Source: Bacillota bacterium
Lineage (GTDB): Bacteria; Bacillota; Clostridia; Acetivibrionales; JANLFN01
Length of the DNA: 64,000 bases
Direction of reading: 5' to 3'
NCBI GenBank assembly: GCA_023421675.1
Contig: JAEZTC010000001.1
Coordinates: 31,388-95,387, forward strand
Shown here: positions 21,938-34,745 of the stretch, piece after piece
Numbering within the stretch: position 1 is the stretch's first letter
Layout of the letters: every line of letters begins with the position of its first letter
The notes under the pieces: model-generated
What the model saw: only the letters and a program-made list of their open reading frames with translations
Databases searched by the model: none
What the model was told of the DNA's origin: nothing
Position numbers and translations under genes: made by a program

Positions 21938-22297
21938 ATGAAGGATAATGTTATTGTTACTAAAACCTTCAGGTTTGCAGTAAAAGTTGTAGAATGCTAT
22001 AAGATGTTGTGTAATACAAGTAAGGAGTATGTATTGTCTAAACAACTTCTTAGTTCAGGTACCAGTATAGGGGCAAATGTGAGGGAAGCGGTACAGGCTC
22101 AAAGTAAAAAGGATTTTGTTTCAAAAATGTCTATCTCTCTTAAGGAAGCTTATGAGACTCAATATTGGATTGAGTTGCTGAAAGAGACAGAGTACATTGA
22201 TAACCAAATAGCAAGCGAATTAATTGATCAATTGGATGAGATTATAAGAATTCTTAGTTCTATTATCAAATCATCAAAGGATAATAAGCAGAAGTAG
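21938..22297 (+). CDS. four-helix-bundle protein (TIGR02436 / 23S rRNA intervening-sequence protein family)
   Basis: 119 aa. Family-typical sequence FRFAVKVVECYK...SKQLLSSGTSIGANVREAQ...SKKDFVSKMSISLKEAYETQYWIELL. RBS is AAAGGGA. Confidence 0.8.
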   Translation: MKDNVIVTKTFRFAVKVVECYKMLCNTSKEYVLSKQLLSSGTSIGANVREAVQAQSKKDFVSKMSISLKEAYETQYWIELLKETEYIDNQIASELIDQLDEIIRILSSIIKSSKDNKQK

Positions 22298-22341: not shown

Positions 22342-22732
22342 GGGGGCGTATTGGTTTCGACGGGATTGTTGAGACTTGGGTAGCGGGTAGAGGATTCTCG
22401 TTGGCCTCTTAAAAAACGAGAAACTAAAATTAAACGCTAAAAATAATAACAATTATTCATTAGCTTTAGCAGCTTAATACTGCTAACCGTCAGTCCAGGG
22501 TTCCTGCACCTTGGGTAGCTGGCGTCATTAAGTCAGGCCTTCGGCATAGGAAGGTTAAATGCTGGAACTTTTGCAGCGGTAGCCTTGAGCTGTAATCGTA
22601 TTTAAAGGATACTGAAAGTGTAATCCTGCCTGTGGGAGTGCACCGTAGGGAATGTAAAAATGCAGGATACACCCGTAGAAGCTCTTGTGGATATGGTTTC
22701 GGACAGGGGTTCGACACCCCTCGCCTCCACCA
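22342..22732 (+). ncRNA. ssrA: transfer-messenger RNA (tmRNA, 10Sa RNA)
   Basis: 5' GGGGGCGTATTGGTTTCGACGGG and 3' GGACAGGGGTTCGACACCCCTCGCCTCCACCA. Internal tag reading frame GCT AAA AAT AAT AAC AAT TAT TCA TTA GCT TTA GCA GCT TAA gives AKNNNNYSLALAA. Follows smpB. Confidence 0.95.
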
Positions 22733-22806: not shown

Positions 22807-22813
22807 TTGGAGC

Positions 22814-22929
22814 GTAAAGGAAACGTGCTGAATGCACGTTTTTAGCGACAAGTGAGGAGACAGGACCCGCCAGCGGGTGGCGACTCGGAAGTATGCGAGC
22901 ACAGCGAAGCAGACGGTCGACTCTGAGCC
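22814..22929 (+). repeat. ~115-nt conserved element, copy 1 (possible structured RNA)
   Basis: About 93% identical to 23576-23690. Internal hairpins ACGTGC-tgaat-GCACGT and ACCCGC-ca-GCGGGT. Copy 1 is followed by an AAGCCGCT/AGCGGCTT terminator-like hairpin. Confidence 0.6.
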
Positions 22930-23078
22930 TGAGCCAAATAAAGCCGCTGATGAAGCGGCTTTTGCCATAATGGTTAATATAAGCCTGATTAATGAAAGTA
23001 AGTTTCGTGCAATATGGATTTGTGGTAGTTACTTATTTAGTGGATATAGTTTAGTCAAGGGAATCCTATTTCTTGATA

Positions 23079-23225: not shown

Positions 23226-23575
23226 TAGTGCACCTCCTTAGCTTATCCATTCTCAACAAAATCAATATTATATTAATGTTATGTTATGGAAACTCATAAG
23301 TCAAGTCGATCAACAAAATAGGCGCTGTCATCAGATATTGGAAATTTTCCTATCAACATTTGAACTATGTAGGATAACAAAGTAGTAATCATAAAAAAGT
23401 AATGCAAGGGAAGGGATGAGAAAGAGCCTTCGAGGGGTAATCGCTAAAAAAATTTGGGTAGACATTAGATAGACAATTCTACTTTAAAACTCCAAAATAG
23501 GACATGATATTGCATAATACTGGAAGGTAAAAGATGGGATACCAATTTCCTTGGGATACCTTGTTTTAAGGGATA

Positions 23576-23690
23576 GTAAGGGAAACGTGCTGAATGCACG
23601 TTTTCAGCGATAAGTGAGGAGCCAGGACCCGCCAGCGGGTGGCGACTCGGAAGTATGCGAGTGAAGCGAGCAGACGGTCGACTCTGAGCC
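23576..23690 (+). repeat. ~115-nt conserved element, copy 2
   Basis: Direct-orientation near-identical copy of 22814-22929. Lies about 340 nt upstream of the HD-GHKL gene. Confidence 0.6.
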
Positions 23691-24032
23691 TCTACCAAGC
23701 AAAACCTCGATAGAAGTATAAGTTGCATACTCCATGGCTTTTGTTATTTGTAATCGCATGATGGGTGTAGGGGACTTCAATCAAATTGGTAAATAAAAAT
23801 ATTATAATTAAAAACTTTTGATATTAGTATATTGAGAAAGTTACCTACCTTATTATGTCAGTAACCATGCTTTATGACATAAGGGTAACTATCGTATAAT
23901 ATTAAATACAGAGATTTTTTCGAAAAGATACAATATTCTTGAAAAACAGGGCGGAAGTTGATAAAAATTGTTATTATATGTATAATTATTGCTAATATTA
24001 CTTTTAACTTATGTGGGGGGAATTATAAAATA

Positions 24033-27384: not shown

Positions 27385-28365
27385 TCAGTGTCCGCCTGAT
27401 TGAAGGTTCAACTGCCTGCTAATCCGTTCCTTTACCTGCGATAGAAAATTATCTGGTCCCAAAACTTTTACTACTGGTCCAAAACTTAAAATACGAATCA
27501 GTAGTTCGGTTTCATCTGCGGGGTCAAAGTTGATGCGGCAAGTGTAAGTATCTCGGTCTTTATCATACTCTGTCTGCCGTTCAAAAGATGCAAATTGAAG
27601 CATACAACGTTCTAATGCGTTACGTTCTTTTGAAATTTCTAAAACCACAGGTTCATTGTGGAAAGGTTCTTTATAAAGTGCATCCAAATCAACAAAAATA
27701 TCAAATTGGTTTTCTGATGGCATAACAGATTTTATGCGCCCAAGATTTAATGTAATCCGTTCAAGTTTGTTATGATGACGGTTGAATGCAGCGCACATGA
27801 GCCTGAATTTATCGTCGCGCGCCGAATAGCATATTTTATACGGATGATATTGCCGCTTGGTACGGCCACCCTTACTACTGCCATATTCGATAATCAGGGG
27901 CTGATGTGCTTTGCAAGCACCGAGAATAGCTTTAAATCGGGCAATATACCCGTCATCGTTGTAATCATCACCGTCAAGATGCTTGTCATATATATGAAAG
28001 TCATTCTGTTCATATAGTGGTTCGATATTATTCAGCGATTCATCTAATACCGTTAGTTGGCTGTCATTTAAAAACAATTTTATACGCCGATCATTAAGAA
28101 GTGCTTTTAACCATGATTTTTCAAGAGTAGTTAAAGGCCTCTTTGTTTCACTGTTGAATTTTGTGAAATATTTTTTGTCCCTTTCCGCAAGTAAACTCCA
28201 TTCACTGGAAAAGAGTGAAGGCAGCAGATGAAAAGCTGTATCATAAAAGCCGTATCCGGAAACAAGTTGTTCAATCTCGGATTTAGATAAGCCGTTCTGG
28301 GCTTGCTCCAAAATTTTAGCCACAACAGTGAAATAGCATCCATAAATTTCGGAAAACAATTCCAT
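27385..28365 (-). CDS. WYL-domain protein (downstream gene of a tandem pair)
   Basis: WYL-like core PYKICYSARDDKFRLMCAAFNRHHNKLERITLNLGRIKSV. AGGAGGTG RBS 6 nt before ATG 28365. Start overlaps the upstream stop codon (TGATG). Confidence 0.7.
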   Translation of the reverse strand: MELFSEIYGCYFTVVAKILEQAQNGLSKSEIEQLVSGYGFYDTAFHLLPSLFSSEWSLLAERDKKYFTKFNSETKRPLTTLEKSWLKALLNDRRIKLFLNDSQLTVLDESLNNIEPLYEQNDFHIYDKHLDGDDYNDDGYIARFKAILGACKAHQPLIIEYGSSKGGRTKRQYHPYKICYSARDDKFRLMCAAFNRHHNKLERITLNLGRIKSVMPSENQFDIFVDLDALYKEPFHNEPVVLEISKERNALERCMLQFASFERQTEYDKDRDTYTCRINFDPADETELLIRILSFGPVVKVLGPDNFLSQVKERISRQLNLQSGGH

Positions 28366-29600
28366 CACTGCTCACCTCCTATACTATACATCTCTGCCAT
28401 TTGGTTAATATCACTGTAAAAACGGTTGACAACAAGCTCGTTTGTCCCTTCAAGCGCGAGAATGCGGCCGGTGAATGTCTTAATCCATGGCGACATATCT
28501 GATGAGTCAAACATTTCCTTGGTGTATAGAAAAGTATTTGTGTCAAGATGCGTAAGTACACCGCCCTGACCCTCTCTCAAGATACGATGGATGATATATT
28601 GCTCACGTTTTTCATCAATGTACAGCTTCATGCATATAACTTCCTTACGGTGTTCACCGCCAAAGCTGACTCCCCAGACCTTATCTAGATTAGTACTTAG
28701 CTTTTCTTTGATTTCAGGAGCAAAATCAATTACAACATCAGGCACAACCGATTTAATATAATCCAAACGATAATTGAAAAAGCGGCGTTTTCGTAGCGAA
28801 TACATGCATGCATATCGGCGCCCGGTTGTCGCACTGACAAATATTTTCAGCGGCAATGCATGTGTGGTCGTGGTCTTTCCGCTTCTTTCGCTTTGATTTT
28901 CAAATACTACTGATTGATTTTTGTGAATAGCTGTAAGCAATTCAAGCAAAATACCGTCCTCAAGAGTGTATGCGATATAGTGATGTTTAAACGCAAATAG
29001 GTCATTTTCAGCATTTTCGTTATCCAAAATATAACTGCCAACTTCCCCGATTGGAGCAACTCCCTGAAAAAACTTGATTGCATCTAAGAATTCATGTGTT
29101 ATGTTGATAGTTTGCGGGGCGATACCGTAGAAAAATACTTTCCCTTGTTTTTCACAAGTCATCATGCCGATTCTTACATACTCATTGCACTTTCCACGGA
29201 CTGTCTGAGCATCAAAAGTGACACCACTTTTTTCGCAAATATAATCAGTAAGTGCATCCACGGCCATTTTTCTGCTTCTTAATGCGTCCAGAATATAAAA
29301 ATGCAGCATAATATCATTTGAAGTAAAACTTTTAGACTTCCATGCTGCGAACAATGGATTAACAGGAATTTTAGAACTGTCCACTGATATGAAGGAGGTT
29401 TTACTGCCATCTTTGTAATCCCATTTCATATATTTCTTGAGATAACTCTCACATCGACGTTTTTCATTATCATAGGTTCTGGCGGATTTTTTAGTGAAAT
29501 CATTGCGCGACTTGAAGCCATATACATAGAAATCTCGCATATAGTCTCGGATTTTATCAAATCTTTTTATCAGTTCTGAAAACTCTGCCATGCCCCTCAC
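28365..29600 (-). CDS. WYL-domain protein (upstream gene of a tandem pair)
   Basis: WYL-like core PLKIFVSATTGRRYACMYSLRKRRFFNYRLDYIKSV. Start is uncertain (GTG 29600 or ATG 29591). Divergent from rtcB. Confidence 0.65.
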   Translation of the reverse strand: MRGMAEFSELIKRFDKIRDYMRDFYVYGFKSRNDFTKKSARTYDNEKRRCESYLKKYMKWDYKDGSKTSFISVDSSKIPVNPLFAAWKSKSFTSNDIMLHFYILDALRSRKMAVDALTDYICEKSGVTFDAQTVRGKCNEYVRIGMMTCEKQGKVFFYGIAPQTINITHEFLDAIKFFQGVAPIGEVGSYILDNENAENDLFAFKHHYIAYTLEDGILLELLTAIHKNQSVVFENQSERSGKTTTTHALPLKIFVSATTGRRYACMYSLRKRRFFNYRLDYIKSVVPDVVIDFAPEIKEKLSTNLDKVWGVSFGGEHRKEVICMKLYIDEKREQYIIHRILREGQGGVLTHLDTNTFLYTKEMFDSSDMSPWIKTFTGRILALEGTNELVVNRFYSDINQMAEMYSIGGEQ

Positions 29601-29710
29601 CCAATAATATGATAATAATTATTCCTTAAAAAATCAACTTCGCAAACTTTTTTAAATGAAAGCAAAATAAGTTACTGGTAAAATTTAACCATAGAAAGGA
29701 GATGAATACA

Positions 29711-30943
29711 ATGTTTGTAATTTCAAACGAAAACACAAATGTACCTATTAAAATTTGGCTGTCAGATGAAAACAAAATTGAGGAAAGCTGTCTTGAACAG
29801 GCGTACCACCTCGCTAATCTGCCATTTTTACATAAATGGGTTTCATTAATGCCTGATACACATACGGGCATGGGAATGCCAATTGGTGGTGTAATTGCCA
29901 CAACCGGTGTAATAATTCCGAACGCTGTTGGTGTAGATATCGGATGTGGAATGGCTTTTGTCGGAACAGATATTAAGGTCGCTGAAATTCATGAAGTTAT
30001 GACCGGGAACGGTTCACTTCTTCAGGGCATTGTTGGAGACATCCTTCGCAATGTACCAGTCGGCTTTAATCATCATAAGAATATTCAAAGTTGCACCACT
30101 CTTGATGTTGCACTTGATAATATGGATAAATATGAAGCAAATACCGAGCTTGTAGGGCAAATTGATGCTGGCTATTATCAGATTGGGACACTTGGCGGGG
30201 GTAATCACTTTATTGAGTTACAGGAAGATAATGATGGCAATTTTGGTATAATGATTCACTCCGGCAGCCGTAATTTTGGTAAGCAAGTATGTGACTACTT
30301 CCACAAAGCCGCCCGTGATTTAAATCAAAAATGGTATTCAAAGATTCCTGATGAATGGCGGTTGGCATTTTTACCGGTTGATTCAAGTGAGGGTAAACAA
30401 TACATTAACTGGATGAATTTAGCGCTTGATTTTGCTGCTGAAAACCGTTCTAAAATGATGTATGCAGTACGTTCAATCATCGAAAAATGGATTGGCAAAT
30501 ATACGAATATTAGTTTTAACTATGCTGATGAAATAAACTGCCACCATAATTATGCTGCAATTGAACATCATTACGATAAAAATGTATGGGTTCACCGCAA
30601 AGGGGCGACCAGAGCACGACTTGGTGAAATCGCAGTTATTCCAGGTGCAATGGGTTCCTATAGCTATGTGGTTGAAGGTTTAGGGAATGAAATGAGCTTC
30701 TGCTCGTCTTCACACGGGGCAGGTCGTCAATATTCACGCAAAGTTGCAATGCAGAATTTTTCTACTGAACAGGTCATGGTCGATTTGAAAGAGCAGGGTG
30801 TTATTCTCGGGAAGCAAAACAAAGAAGACGTGGCGGAAGAAAGTCGCTTTGCATATAAGGATATAGATGTTGTAATGGAAAATCAACAGGATTTGGTTAA
30901 GCCAATCAAAAAGTTAAAGACTATAGGTGTGGTCAAAGGTTAG
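29711..30943 (+). CDS. rtcB: RNA-splicing ligase RtcB (3'-phosphate/5'-OH RNA ligase)
   Basis: RtcB motifs PDTHTGMGMPIGGV, NAVGVDIGCGM, GGGNHFIEL and the catalytic His in SSHGAGR. AGGAG RBS 9 nt upstream of ATG 29711. Confidence 0.9.
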   Translation: MFVISNENTNVPIKIWLSDENKIEESCLEQAYHLANLPFLHKWVSLMPDTHTGMGMPIGGVIATTGVIIPNAVGVDIGCGMAFVGTDIKVAEIHEVMTGNGSLLQGIVGDILRNVPVGFNHHKNIQSCTTLDVALDNMDKYEANTELVGQIDAGYYQIGTLGGGNHFIELQEDNDGNFGIMIHSGSRNFGKQVCDYFHKAARDLNQKWYSKIPDEWRLAFLPVDSSEGKQYINWMNLALDFAAENRSKMMYAVRSIIEKWIGKYTNISFNYADEINCHHNYAAIEHHYDKNVWVHRKGATRARLGEIAVIPGAMGSYSYVVEGLGNEMSFCSSSHGAGRQYSRKVAMQNFSTEQVMVDLKEQGVILGKQNKEDVAEESRFAYKDIDVVMENQQDLVKPIKKLKTIGVVKG

Positions 30944-31029
30944 GTTTTAGGGTGTTGCAGCCTTATATACAACTGATTTATTCTATGCTAAGGGATCAAA
31001 ATCCTTTGCGGTGCCGTAGCGACTAGCTT

Positions 31030-31094
31030 CACGGTATGCCGGGTAGATCAGAAAAATGACAGACAGTGTCGGAGGTTCGAATCCTCTACCCGTG
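31030..31094 (+). other. tRNA-like element 1 (T-arm GGAGG-TTCGAAT-CCTCT plus enclosing stem), not a canonical tRNA
   Basis: Perfect T-arm at 31071-31087, flanked by CACGG (31030-34) and CCGTG (31090-94). GGGTAGA (31041-31047) is complementary to TCTACCC (31085-31091). No D-arm or anticodon arm can be drawn. Confidence 0.4.
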
Positions 31095-31096
31095 AA

Positions 31097-31197
31097 AGGG
31101 TTAACTCAGTTGGAAGAGTATGTCTAGTTTTAGACTGAAAAGCTAAAACTCAAATGGTAAGCGAGCAGTCGCCTGAGGTTCAAATCCTCAATCAGGG
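31097..31197 (+). other. tRNA-like element 2 (D-arm-like ACTC-AGTTGGAA-GAGT, T-arm TGAGG-TTCAAAT-CCTCA)
   Basis: D-arm-like hairpin at 31104-31119, GTCTA-gttt-TAGAC hairpin, T-arm at 31174-31190, 3' ATCAGGG. No matching 5' acceptor strand. Confidence 0.4.
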
Positions 31198-31453
31198 AAA
31201 AGACCTTTCAAGTCTATTCACAAATGGTAGAAATCAAAAATGTCCGGCAAGAGATGGACTGGAAACCATATCATCTTTTGCAACGATTAGCCAGCCAGTG
31301 GTGAAAAGGATACCGTTTGTTTCAGGATTGTTCCATAACGTTCAAGTGATGAATGTACACCGGACAATGACGGAAAAACTTCAATTTTTACCCCGCAGGA
31401 AAAGCGTGGACATTTTTGATAGAAACCGAAATTAAAAGGAAAGAGGTAATAAA

Positions 31454-34061: not shown

Positions 34062-34409
34062 ATGAATGTACATCATTATGAAACAAGGGGAGGCAAAGAC
34101 ATAATCCTTGAGTATATTGACGAGCTTCCCAAAAATGAAAAAGCAGAGGGGTTAACAATTCTTGAAAAACTTGAGGATGAAGGATTCGCAGCACTTGATG
34201 TACTAAATACGAGACAACTCAGGGCAAAGCTCTGGGAAATCAAGTTTTATGATAATAATAGGATTATGTATGTTATAGCAGACGGGGAAAATATGTATTT
34301 GGTTCATGTTTGTAAAAAGCAGAAGGGTAAAGCTGAAAGGTTTGAATTGGATAAAGCAATAAAAAGAGTCAGGGAACTGGAAACGGAACTGGGCAAGAGA
34401 TTTATTTGA
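34062..34409 (+). CDS. type II toxin, RelE/ParE superfamily (HigB / Gp49-like, DUF891-type)
   Basis: LRAKLWEIKFYDNNRIMYVIADGENMYLVHVCKKQKGKAE matches the Gp49/HigB-like killer fold pattern. Followed 22 nt later by an XRE-HTH gene. RBS is CAGGAGAAA. Confidence 0.65.
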   Translation: MNVHHYETRGGKDIILEYIDELPKNEKAEGLTILEKLEDEGFAALDVLNTRQLRAKLWEIKFYDNNRIMYVIADGENMYLVHVCKKQKGKAERFELDKAIKRVRELETELGKRFI

Positions 34410-34430
34410 ATGAATGAGAGGTGAATACCC

Positions 34431-34745
34431 ATGCCGTTTAAAAAAGTCAATGTTAAGGAAGAAATCAACAAAAGGCTGGAAAATGACGTAGAACTTAAGA
34501 AAGCATATGCTAATGCACAGCATGAGTATGAAGTTATCAAGCAGCTTGTAAAAATAAGAAATGAAATGGGTTTTTCCCAAAGTGATGTTGCAAGGCAGTC
34601 CGGATTGACACAGCAGATGGTTTCCAGGATTGAAACCGTAGATAACTCCCCCACGCTCAGGAACTTTATAAAGTATGTAGACAGCCTGGGCTTGGAAATC
34701 AGGATTGAGAAAAAGGATGCAAAAATGGAGTGCGGAAAGGTGTAG
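34431..34745 (+). CDS. HTH XRE-family antitoxin (HigA-like)
   Basis: HTH segment LVKIRNEMGFSQSDVARQSGLTQQMVSRIE. RBS is GAGAGGTGA. Confidence 0.7.
   Translation: MPFKKVNVKEEINKRLENDVELKKAYANAQHEYEVIKQLVKIRNEMGFSQSDVARQSGLTQQMVSRIETVDNSPTLRNFIKYVDSLGLEIRIEKKDAKMECGKV

Follow-up and report, generated by a model that had tools for sequence, protein, structure and literature searches.

A conserved WYL-domain gene pair facing an operon of rtcB, a structured RNA and an SPFH gene in Clostridia: a candidate regulator of RNA repair

The stretch of DNA considered here (the window) comprises 64,000 nucleotides from a Bacillota bacterium of the class Clostridia (assembly GCA_023421675.1, contig JAEZTC010000001.1, positions 31,388 to 95,387). 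It contains two adjacent genes, wylA and wylB, encoding the WYL-domain proteins WYL-A and WYL-B, which diverge from an operon composed of rtcB, a structured non-coding RNA (ncRNA) with a tRNA-like domain, and a gene for an SPFH/Band-7 protein (Table 1). The gene pair recurs as a unit in many related genomes, commonly facing this operon across a promoter that carries a single asymmetric motif, and may well encode a heteromeric transcription activator of RNA repair. An initial annotation of the window had singled out the two WYL genes and rtcB; it had missed both the tRNA-like ncRNA and the SPFH gene, which define the module.

A WYL gene pair and the operon that it faces

The two genes are arranged as initially annotated, as adjacent minus-strand open reading frames (ORFs) with a stop/start overlap. 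At their junction, which reads GGAGGTGAGCAGTGATGGAA on the coding strand, the TGA stop of wylA and the ATG start of wylB share one base (28365), and a Shine-Dalgarno sequence, GGAGG, is located just upstream of the wylB start. The maximal ORF of wylA (28365..29600) begins with GTG and encodes 411 aa, but since all homologues begin at its fourth residue, with the sequence MAEFSEL, the likely start is the ATG at 29591. On the opposite strand, the rtcB start codon at 29711 lies 9 nt after the sequence AAAGGAG and is favored by gene callers and homologues over an alternative ATG at 29702.

Table 1. Features of the WYL-rtcB module and of its surroundings in the window
Feature	Position	Strand	Basis or remark
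wylB, 326 aa, predicted winged helix-turn-helix (wHTH)-WYL-WCX	27385..28365	-	ORF; Pfam WYL 22.6 bits; model
wylA, 408 aa	28365..29591	-	ORF; Pfam WYL 27.5 bits; model; fold matches
Asymmetric 21-nt motif TTCGCAAACTTTTTTAAATGA, candidate WYL-A/B binding site	29639..29659	+	57/57 intergenic regions
Core rtcB promoter	29656..29684	+	Promoter scan; fixed-offset hexamer
-35-like hexamer ATGAAA, then 17-nt spacer	29656-29661	+	
TG extension; -10 hexamer TAAAAT	29676-29677; 29679-29684	+	TGGTAAAAT
Near-palindrome GGTAAAATTTAACC	29677..29690	.	Overlaps -10 hexamer
rtcB, RNA 3'-phosphate/5'-OH ligase, 410 aa	29711..30943	+	Pfam RtcB 380 bits
Structured ncRNA, ~450 nt	30973..31418	+	Minimum free energy (MFE), RNAalifold, covariation
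5' domain of ncRNA	30973-31051	+	
Permuted tRNA-like (YrlA-like) domain of ncRNA	31057..31128	+	Own covariance model
Second T-arm of ncRNA	31175-31189	+	
3' domain of ncRNA with long-range helices	31235-31418	+	
SPFH/Band-7 protein, 364 aa	31454..32548	+	Pfam Band_7 120.5 bits
ssrA, transfer-messenger RNA (tmRNA)	22342-22732		184 bits; tag peptide AKNNNNYSLALAA
HD-CE + HATPase_c_3 (GHKL ATPase) protein, 972 aa	23958-26876		Adjoins module
Gp49-family toxin-like gene (115 aa), then HTH antitoxin-like gene (104 aa)	34062-34745		Pfam

Both products of the pair were recognized by the Pfam WYL profile (PF13280) above its gathering cut-off of 21.8 bits, a result that, together with the predicted wHTH-WYL-WCX folds, bears out the WYL identity first proposed from their sequence; the core motifs, however, had been interchanged, PLKIFVS...RLDYIKSV belonging to the 411-aa protein and PYKICYS...LGRIKSV to the 326-aa protein. 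The Pfam WCX profile gave 19 bits with WYL-B (cut-off 23.9) and no match with WYL-A, and the fold matches of the proteins extend through the C-terminus. AlphaFold models, built from alignments of 20 and 21 homologues, contain in each case a winged helix, a helical linker, an SH3-like WYL barrel and a C-terminal alpha/beta domain. The wHTH itself, predicted as three helices and a beta-hairpin, occupies residues 2-68 of WYL-B, in a model with a predicted local distance difference test (pLDDT) score of 76.4; in WYL-A, where its confidence is moderate, it occupies residues 94-160, following an N-terminal extension of ~95 aa and preceding the WYL domain (217-285) and a WCX-like C-terminus. Foldseek comparison with the PDB returned for both proteins the transcription factors DriD (8tpk, 8tp8), PafBC (9fnd, 6sj9), BrxR (7qfz, 7t8k) and CapW (7tb5, 9c5g), and also the Cas13d accessory protein WYL1 (6oaw), in essentially full-length alignments of ~350 columns with E values from 5e-12 to about 1e-4, those for the four transcription factors lying between 5e-12 and 1e-7. 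The top fold match of WYL-A was DriD and that of WYL-B was PafBC (9fnd_Y, E 5e-12). A link to solved structures at the level of sequence was also sought and discarded: the WYL-A profile, run against PDB sequences, gave nothing beyond PafBC chains at E 0.33, over the WYL core. Neither BLASTP nor hhalign detected homology between WYL-A and WYL-B outside that core.

Patterns of conservation differ between the two proteins in the segment most pertinent to DNA recognition. The predicted recognition helix of WYL-A (131-143) carries invariant Q132, R135 and K137 in the alignment, whereas in the corresponding helix of WYL-B (44-53, AFHLLPSLFS) no basic residue is conserved. The alignment also shows that WYL-A retains R261, R262, C265, R273 and R278, the pattern of basic residues plus a cysteine described for the WYL family (PMC4012209). 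The most conserved part of WYL-A is its N-terminal ~95 residues, in which many basic and aromatic residues are invariant; a search of 1.84 billion representative proteins located this region only at the N-terminus of the present family, and gave no clue to its function.

With the WYL-A profile we collected 80 genome loci, almost all from Clostridia, including Lachnospiraceae, Clostridiaceae, Oscillospiraceae and Christensenellaceae. WYL-B follows WYL-A in every one of the 80, usually starting within a few nucleotides of the WYL-A stop or overlapping it, and the one-base overlap of the window is also found in 17 loci. In three of the 80 (L051, L061, L074) a single ORF of 790-803 aa runs through both genes, and full-length WYL-A followed by full-length WYL-B occurs as one protein of 728-855 aa in six independent representative clusters (P0243, P0249, P0267, P0277, P0305, P0382), with linkers of roughly 0 to 55 residues. 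Gene fusions of this kind are a classic indication that the proteins concerned function together in a single complex. PafBC is likewise fused in Arthrobacter, where the 6sj9 chains comprise 642 residues. Obligate adjacency and natural fusion together argue that the pair acts as a unit, and suggest that the two products form one complex.

The divergent gene had been identified as rtcB, an assignment that the Pfam match fully sustains. The enzyme encoded across the intergenic region is intact, retaining all of the motifs DIGCG, GNHFIEL, HSGSRNFG, CHHNY and SSHGAGR. These motifs hold the metal-binding Cys and His residues and the GMP-accepting His of RtcB. The window displays the full arrangement of the operon, in which rtcB is followed by a gap of 510 nt and then by the SPFH gene; by eye, the SPFH protein has no obvious hydrophobic membrane segment.

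The association of WYL genes with rtcB is not unique to this genome, as a survey of the collected loci makes clear. Sequence upstream of WYL-A was available in 77 of the 80, and in 63 of these the pair faces RtcB and/or an SPFH gene. RtcB is divergent and within 600 bp in 56 loci: 43 also have an SPFH/Band-7 gene after a gap of 340-1070 bp, eight have none despite sufficient room, and five contigs are too short to tell. Seven further loci have no RtcB, only an SPFH gene preceded by a non-coding stretch of 500-1050 bp; RtcB lies a few kb from the pair in four, and neither gene was found in the remaining ten. Downstream of RtcB in the loci that do not have SPFH, no conserved genes were found. 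The neighboring proteins scanned against Pfam included neither an RtcA cyclase nor an RtcR-type regulator (CARF-AAA+, sigma-54), and the failure to find the latter makes reasonable the earlier idea that the pair replaces RtcR.

The promoter motif and the structured RNA

Alignment of 57 wylA-rtcB intergenic regions revealed a single ungapped conserved block, the 21-nt motif, present in all of them. Its positions 2-6 (TCGCA), 10-16 (TTTTTTA) and 18-21 (ATGA) are nearly invariant, while positions 8, 9 and 17 vary. A weight matrix derived from the motif found in each locus either a single site or two in tandem, 41 bp apart, and no other site in the 1.13 Mb of loci or in the 64-kb window (1.19 Mb in all); the one occurrence in the window is at the rtcB operon, which is the only target found. 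In the loci where several kb separate RtcB from the pair (L046, L049, L054, L070), the motif is found with RtcB, on its upstream side, and where RtcB is absent it precedes the ncRNA; from the wylA start it lies anywhere between 12 and 456 nt away. It therefore belongs to the target promoter, at about -52 to -32.

The spacing of this element to the core promoter is rigid. In all 57 regions a TAnnnT hexamer follows the motif by 19 or 20 nt (offset 41 or 42 from the motif start), and 42 of them have a TG ahead of it; the -35-like hexamer begins with A and not T in 53. The conserved elements are those of a sigma-A-type promoter, with transcription of the rtcB operon predicted to start near 29691. 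A reciprocal scan of metagenome contigs for the exact motif returned 80 loci, with WYL-A divergent upstream in 56. Where RtcB or SPFH lay downstream and there was room upstream, WYL-A was found in 46 of 53. About ten of the metagenome matches have no -10 hexamer at the expected offset, some being visibly within coding sequence, and look like chance matches.

Some variations of the promoter region may be recorded here. Positions 52-56 after the motif start, corresponding to the predicted transcription start and first leader bases (~29690-29700), are moderately conserved as CATAA or CATAG, often CATAGCAAACA. In several loci the -10 region lies within a true palindrome (ATGCTAATATCATAGCAT), an arrangement that could give back-to-back divergent promoters. 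At one locus (L025:5881-7524, minus strand) the motif is followed by a gene for a 547-aa protein with no Pfam match, the first ~25 residues of which resemble the N-terminus of RtcB while the remainder does not.

A different operator had been proposed at the outset, namely the near-palindrome GGTAAAATTTAACC, to which a symmetric WYL dimer would bind. This sequence is indeed intergenic, a short way upstream of rtcB, and six of its seven possible pairs are palindromic. However, such 14-mers number 143 in the window (2.2 per kb) and are contained in 23% of shuffles of the 110-bp spacer, and a palindrome occurs at the corresponding place in only 4 of 56 related intergenic regions, leaving 52 with none. 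Moreover the sequence is the TGnTAAAAT extended -10 region plus the bases that follow, and the element that is conserved lies 18 nt upstream of it. Being no more frequent than chance would provide, and not conserved, the palindrome was rejected as the operator, and we consider its recognition by a WYL dimer very improbable.

The gap between rtcB and the SPFH gene has the appearance of a single large structured RNA. None of 100 shuffles folds as well as it does (MFE z-score -4.07), and it contains two T-loop motifs, GGTTCRAWTCC, of which one to four are found in related gaps. Known RNAs do not account for it: Rfam 15 gave only sub-threshold matches, to YrlA (27.5 bits at 31063-31123, against a threshold of 69 bits) and, weakly, to tRNA, and ARAGORN called no ordinary tRNA in the window and only odd ones in four related loci. 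The tRNA-like domain has the order closing stem, 5-nt variable loop, T-arm, capped acceptor hairpin, UA and D-arm. A covariance model that we built for it (R1) scores 72.9 bits in the window and returned 63 matches at E<=0.01; some 60 of these, all on the operon strand, fall within the non-coding stretch that follows the promoter motif. These matches precede the SPFH gene in the full and SPFH-only loci, or a substitute gene in the locus described below, or fall at the contig end in two truncated loci; the three others are weak and coincide with ordinary tRNA genes. R1 found no match in the eight RtcB-only loci with room downstream.

Covariation supports both the tRNA-like domain and the larger structure. 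Among R1 matches 94.7% of cells are paired, compared with 63% in shuffles, and changes on both sides are seen in 17 of 19 pairs. RNAalifold, applied to 15 whole gaps, yielded 71 pairs in four parts; 92% of cells are paired (74% in shuffles), and 55 of the 71 pairs show both-side changes where 35 are expected, a count reached by none of 500 shuffles, although the structure was derived from the same alignment in which covariation was counted. For this covariation count the observed score was 0.592, and slid controls did not exceed 0.154. Conserved single-stranded blocks are also present (GGAUACCG, CCAUA, CCGGAUAA and CCCGCA).

One variant of the operon is of interest with respect to the RNA. At L066:5952-7421 (minus strand) the pair, motif and tRNA-like RNA are followed by a gene for a DUF2828+DUF7788/vWA protein in place of RtcB and SPFH. 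The layout of this protein resembles the TROVE plus vWA arrangement of Ro60. Its presence argues that the regulator and the RNA combine with different protein partners.

A regulatory model and its alternatives

The features of this locus are most readily reconciled with a transcription activator of the PafBC/DriD type, in which WYL-A and WYL-B form a heteromeric nucleic-acid-sensing factor that switches on the rtcB-ncRNA-SPFH operon when it binds a nucleic-acid fragment; we would give this reading a probability of roughly 0.55. The complex would bind the asymmetric motif TTCGCAAnnTTTTTTA(A/T)ATGA, which abuts and partly overlaps the weak -35 element of a sigma-A-type extended -10 promoter, and occupation of the WYL domains by a fragment, which we infer to be damaged single-stranded RNA, would lead it to activate transcription. 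An activator is favored by the asymmetry of the site, its rigid spacing to the -10 hexamer, the off-consensus -35 element, and the contrast between an intact recognition helix in WYL-A and a degenerate one in WYL-B. WYL-A would probably read DNA through Q132, R135 and K137; for WYL-B, whose corresponding helix is without conserved basic residues, contact with WYL-A or RNA polymerase is more likely. As the motif lies in or next to the wylA leader, the pair probably also regulates itself.

Precedents for most parts of this scheme exist. In the PafBC heterodimer only the HTH of PafB reads DNA, that of PafC contacting RNA polymerase, and PafBC promoters pair a canonical -10 with a specific element that is placed upstream at an invariant spacing (PMC8635444). 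The resemblance of the actinobacterial system (6SJ9, 7P5X, 9FND) to the present one extends to two adjacent paralogous genes for proteins of (here predicted) wHTH-WYL-WCX fold, natural fusions, an asymmetric promoter element held at a fixed distance from the -10, and the likely division of labor between one HTH that reads DNA and one that does not. The two nevertheless differ in several respects. The host phylum is different, and no sequence relation is detectable beyond the WYL core; the PafBC element is at -26 and not at -52 to -32; PafBC has no counterpart of the ~95-aa N-terminal domain of WYL-A; and its target is a DNA-damage regulon of ~150 genes, whereas the target here is one RNA-repair operon. 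Neither orthology to PafB and PafC (E 0.33) nor a DNA-damage regulon (one motif site in the window) was in evidence. DriD of Caulobacter crescentus (8TPK, 8TP8, 9PFQ) offers a second parallel. It is an activator; at didA its 20-bp site extends as far as -36, which leaves 1 nt to the -35, and autoregulation is suggested by a further site in its own promoter region, at a distance of 10 nt from the start codon (PMC9186387). DriD too has a site directly upstream of the -35 of a sigma-70-type promoter. It differs in being presumably a homodimer, as the 8tp8 and 8tpk complexes contain only DriD chains, in having a site drawn with inverted repeats, and in sensing single-stranded DNA and controlling DNA-damage genes.

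The same pair and motif could instead operate in the manner of BrxR and CapW, as a repressor that sits on the -35 flank and keeps rtcB, the ncRNA and SPFH off until fragments release it. BrxR and CapW are close fold matches of both proteins, the 3' end of the motif overlaps the -35-like hexamer, and an extended -10 so well conserved may make the promoter active unaided. Set against this, the conserved block for the most part precedes the -35 (-52 to -36), as does the site of the activator DriD; the prevalence of A at the first -35 position is as expected of an activator-dependent promoter; and the site is asymmetric, while operators of BrxR and CapW are reportedly palindromic. On this balance we hold repression to be unlikely, although a serious contender. 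Less probable still is that the motif is read by some other factor, such as an alternative sigma factor or global regulator, and that the pair is linked to RtcB by a non-transcriptional role, for example as an RNA-binding cofactor resembling WYL1. The appearance of WYL1 among the fold matches, the highly conserved and basic N-terminal domain of WYL-A, and seven metagenome loci with motif and RtcB and no adjacent pair would fit such a role. The wHTH in both proteins, with invariant Q, R and K in the predicted recognition helix of WYL-A, the placement of the motif between the divergent genes in all 57 cases, and the finding that no sigma or other regulator gene is conserved across the loci speak against it.

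Several points must be counted against activation by the WYL-A/WYL-B complex. The seven metagenome loci just mentioned are among them, and in about ten of the 77 genome loci, conversely, the pair has no motif, RtcB or SPFH nearby. Confidence in the WYL-A model is low (pLDDT 63.5, predicted template modeling score 0.37), and some fused ORFs from metagenomes could be assembly errors. BrxR and CapW, which match the fold almost equally well, are repressors, and a reasonable extended -10 might fire without an activator and so need repression. As to the nature of the fragment, the ligand in the PDB entries of DriD and CapW is single-stranded DNA and not RNA, and the same ligand was shown for PafBC (PMC11804915).

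Other nucleic-acid sensors bear on whether the fragment would be RNA. WYL1 binds single-stranded RNA, and RtcR is activated by tRNA fragments. The RtcR-RtcA-RtcB system of E. coli and Salmonella shares with the present locus an RtcB operon facing a divergent regulator that has a domain for sensing nucleic-acid fragments. That domain is CARF in RtcR (PMC7790460), whereas here it would be WYL, an Sm-like SH3 barrel, acting at a sigma-A extended -10 promoter; the CARF/AAA+/sigma-54 activator and RtcA were not found among the neighbors scanned. According to a proposal of the Aravind group, RNAs bearing cyclic phosphate ends are sensed by WYL transcription factors, and these factors control pathways of RNA repair (PMC9503650).

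The operon itself also has antecedents. The rtcB gene, tRNA-like RNA and SPFH gene form the RtcB-Band-7-b7a-tRNA repair system predicted by Burroughs and Aravind (2016), as quoted in bioRxiv 10.1101/312249. Common to both are RtcB, an SPFH/Band-7 protein and a tRNA-like RNA between them in one operon; in the window, compared with that description, the RNA is ~450 nt and has the permuted layout of YrlA, not an ordinary cloverleaf. The same source notes that YrlA occurs occasionally next to a Band-7 protein. YrlA (RF02553), which is associated with Ro60/Rsr and also found near rtcB, has the T-arm, capped acceptor stem and D-arm in the same permuted order. The present RNA differs in its sub-threshold score, in that its tRNA-like domain is embedded in a much larger RNA, and in its partner, which is SPFH (or the DUF2828/vWA protein of the one variant locus) and not Ro60.

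A bolder extension of the activator model is that WYL-A/B would be the first WYL activator to sense damaged RNA in place of single-stranded DNA, such as fragments ending in 2',3'-cyclic phosphate or 5'-OH, and would switch on a three-part repair particle. This we advance only tentatively, and with equal reserve the composition of such a particle, which would consist of the RtcB ligase, the ornate ~450-nt RNA with its permuted tRNA-like domain, and a cytosolic SPFH cage. If true, the module would correspond, in Clostridia, to RtcR as well as to Ro60/Y-RNA.

WYL transcription factors, the RtcB-Band-7-tRNA-like system and the notion of WYL factors governing RNA repair are already in the literature. 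In the literature searched we found no description of the A/B pair, its natural fusions, the 21-nt element or the full size of the RNA, and no account of rtcB control in Clostridia. To our knowledge, RtcR is the only characterized regulator of RtcB. With two proteins, a single 21-nt site and a single promoter, and conservation over at least 60 genomes, the proposition is precise and cheaply testable. If it holds, the PafBC/DriD class of WYL activators would extend from DNA-damage responses to RNA repair, and the module would provide a natural system for asking whether WYL domains read RNA ends; it could show a WYL sensor working on RNA damage. The SPFH protein is in turn a proposed scaffold for RNA ligation, partnered with a large RNA supported by covariation.

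Genomic context of the module

The module had been viewed initially as part of a defense island, a framing for which we find no support beyond the window. PADLOC matched no system model to the five module proteins, WYL-B matching only its generic Cas-associated WYL models; the WYL-A family was not found in IMG/VR viral contigs; and NCBIfam has no family for either WYL protein. The flanking genes differ between genomes, and elsewhere are unrelated housekeeping genes. On these grounds we see a chromosomal stress-response module and not a component of a defense island.

In the window, the gene adjoining the module encodes the 972-aa HD-CE/HATPase_c_3 protein, which has no match in PADLOC. With a GC content of 29-31%, markedly below that of its surroundings, this gene was possibly acquired horizontally. 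The ssrA gene lies ~4.6 kb upstream of the RNA-repair module; smpB is found just upstream of ssrA in the matching contig, and a gene at 21938-22297 encodes a "23S rRNA intervening sequence" family protein. A direct repeat of ~137 nt (22809-22945 and 23571-23706), GC-rich and by eye hairpin-forming, closely follows the tmRNA gene on its downstream side; its copies are 762 bp apart and show 91% and 84% identity over two segments. It has no match in Rfam, and may represent either a repeated RNA element or the termini of an insertion at ssrA. On the other side of the module, 1.5 kb downstream of the SPFH gene, lies the Gp49/HTH toxin-antitoxin-like pair. Gp49-type toxins are RelE-like mRNA endonucleases; if this one cuts RNA, an RNA-cutting toxin sits close to the RNA-repair operon.

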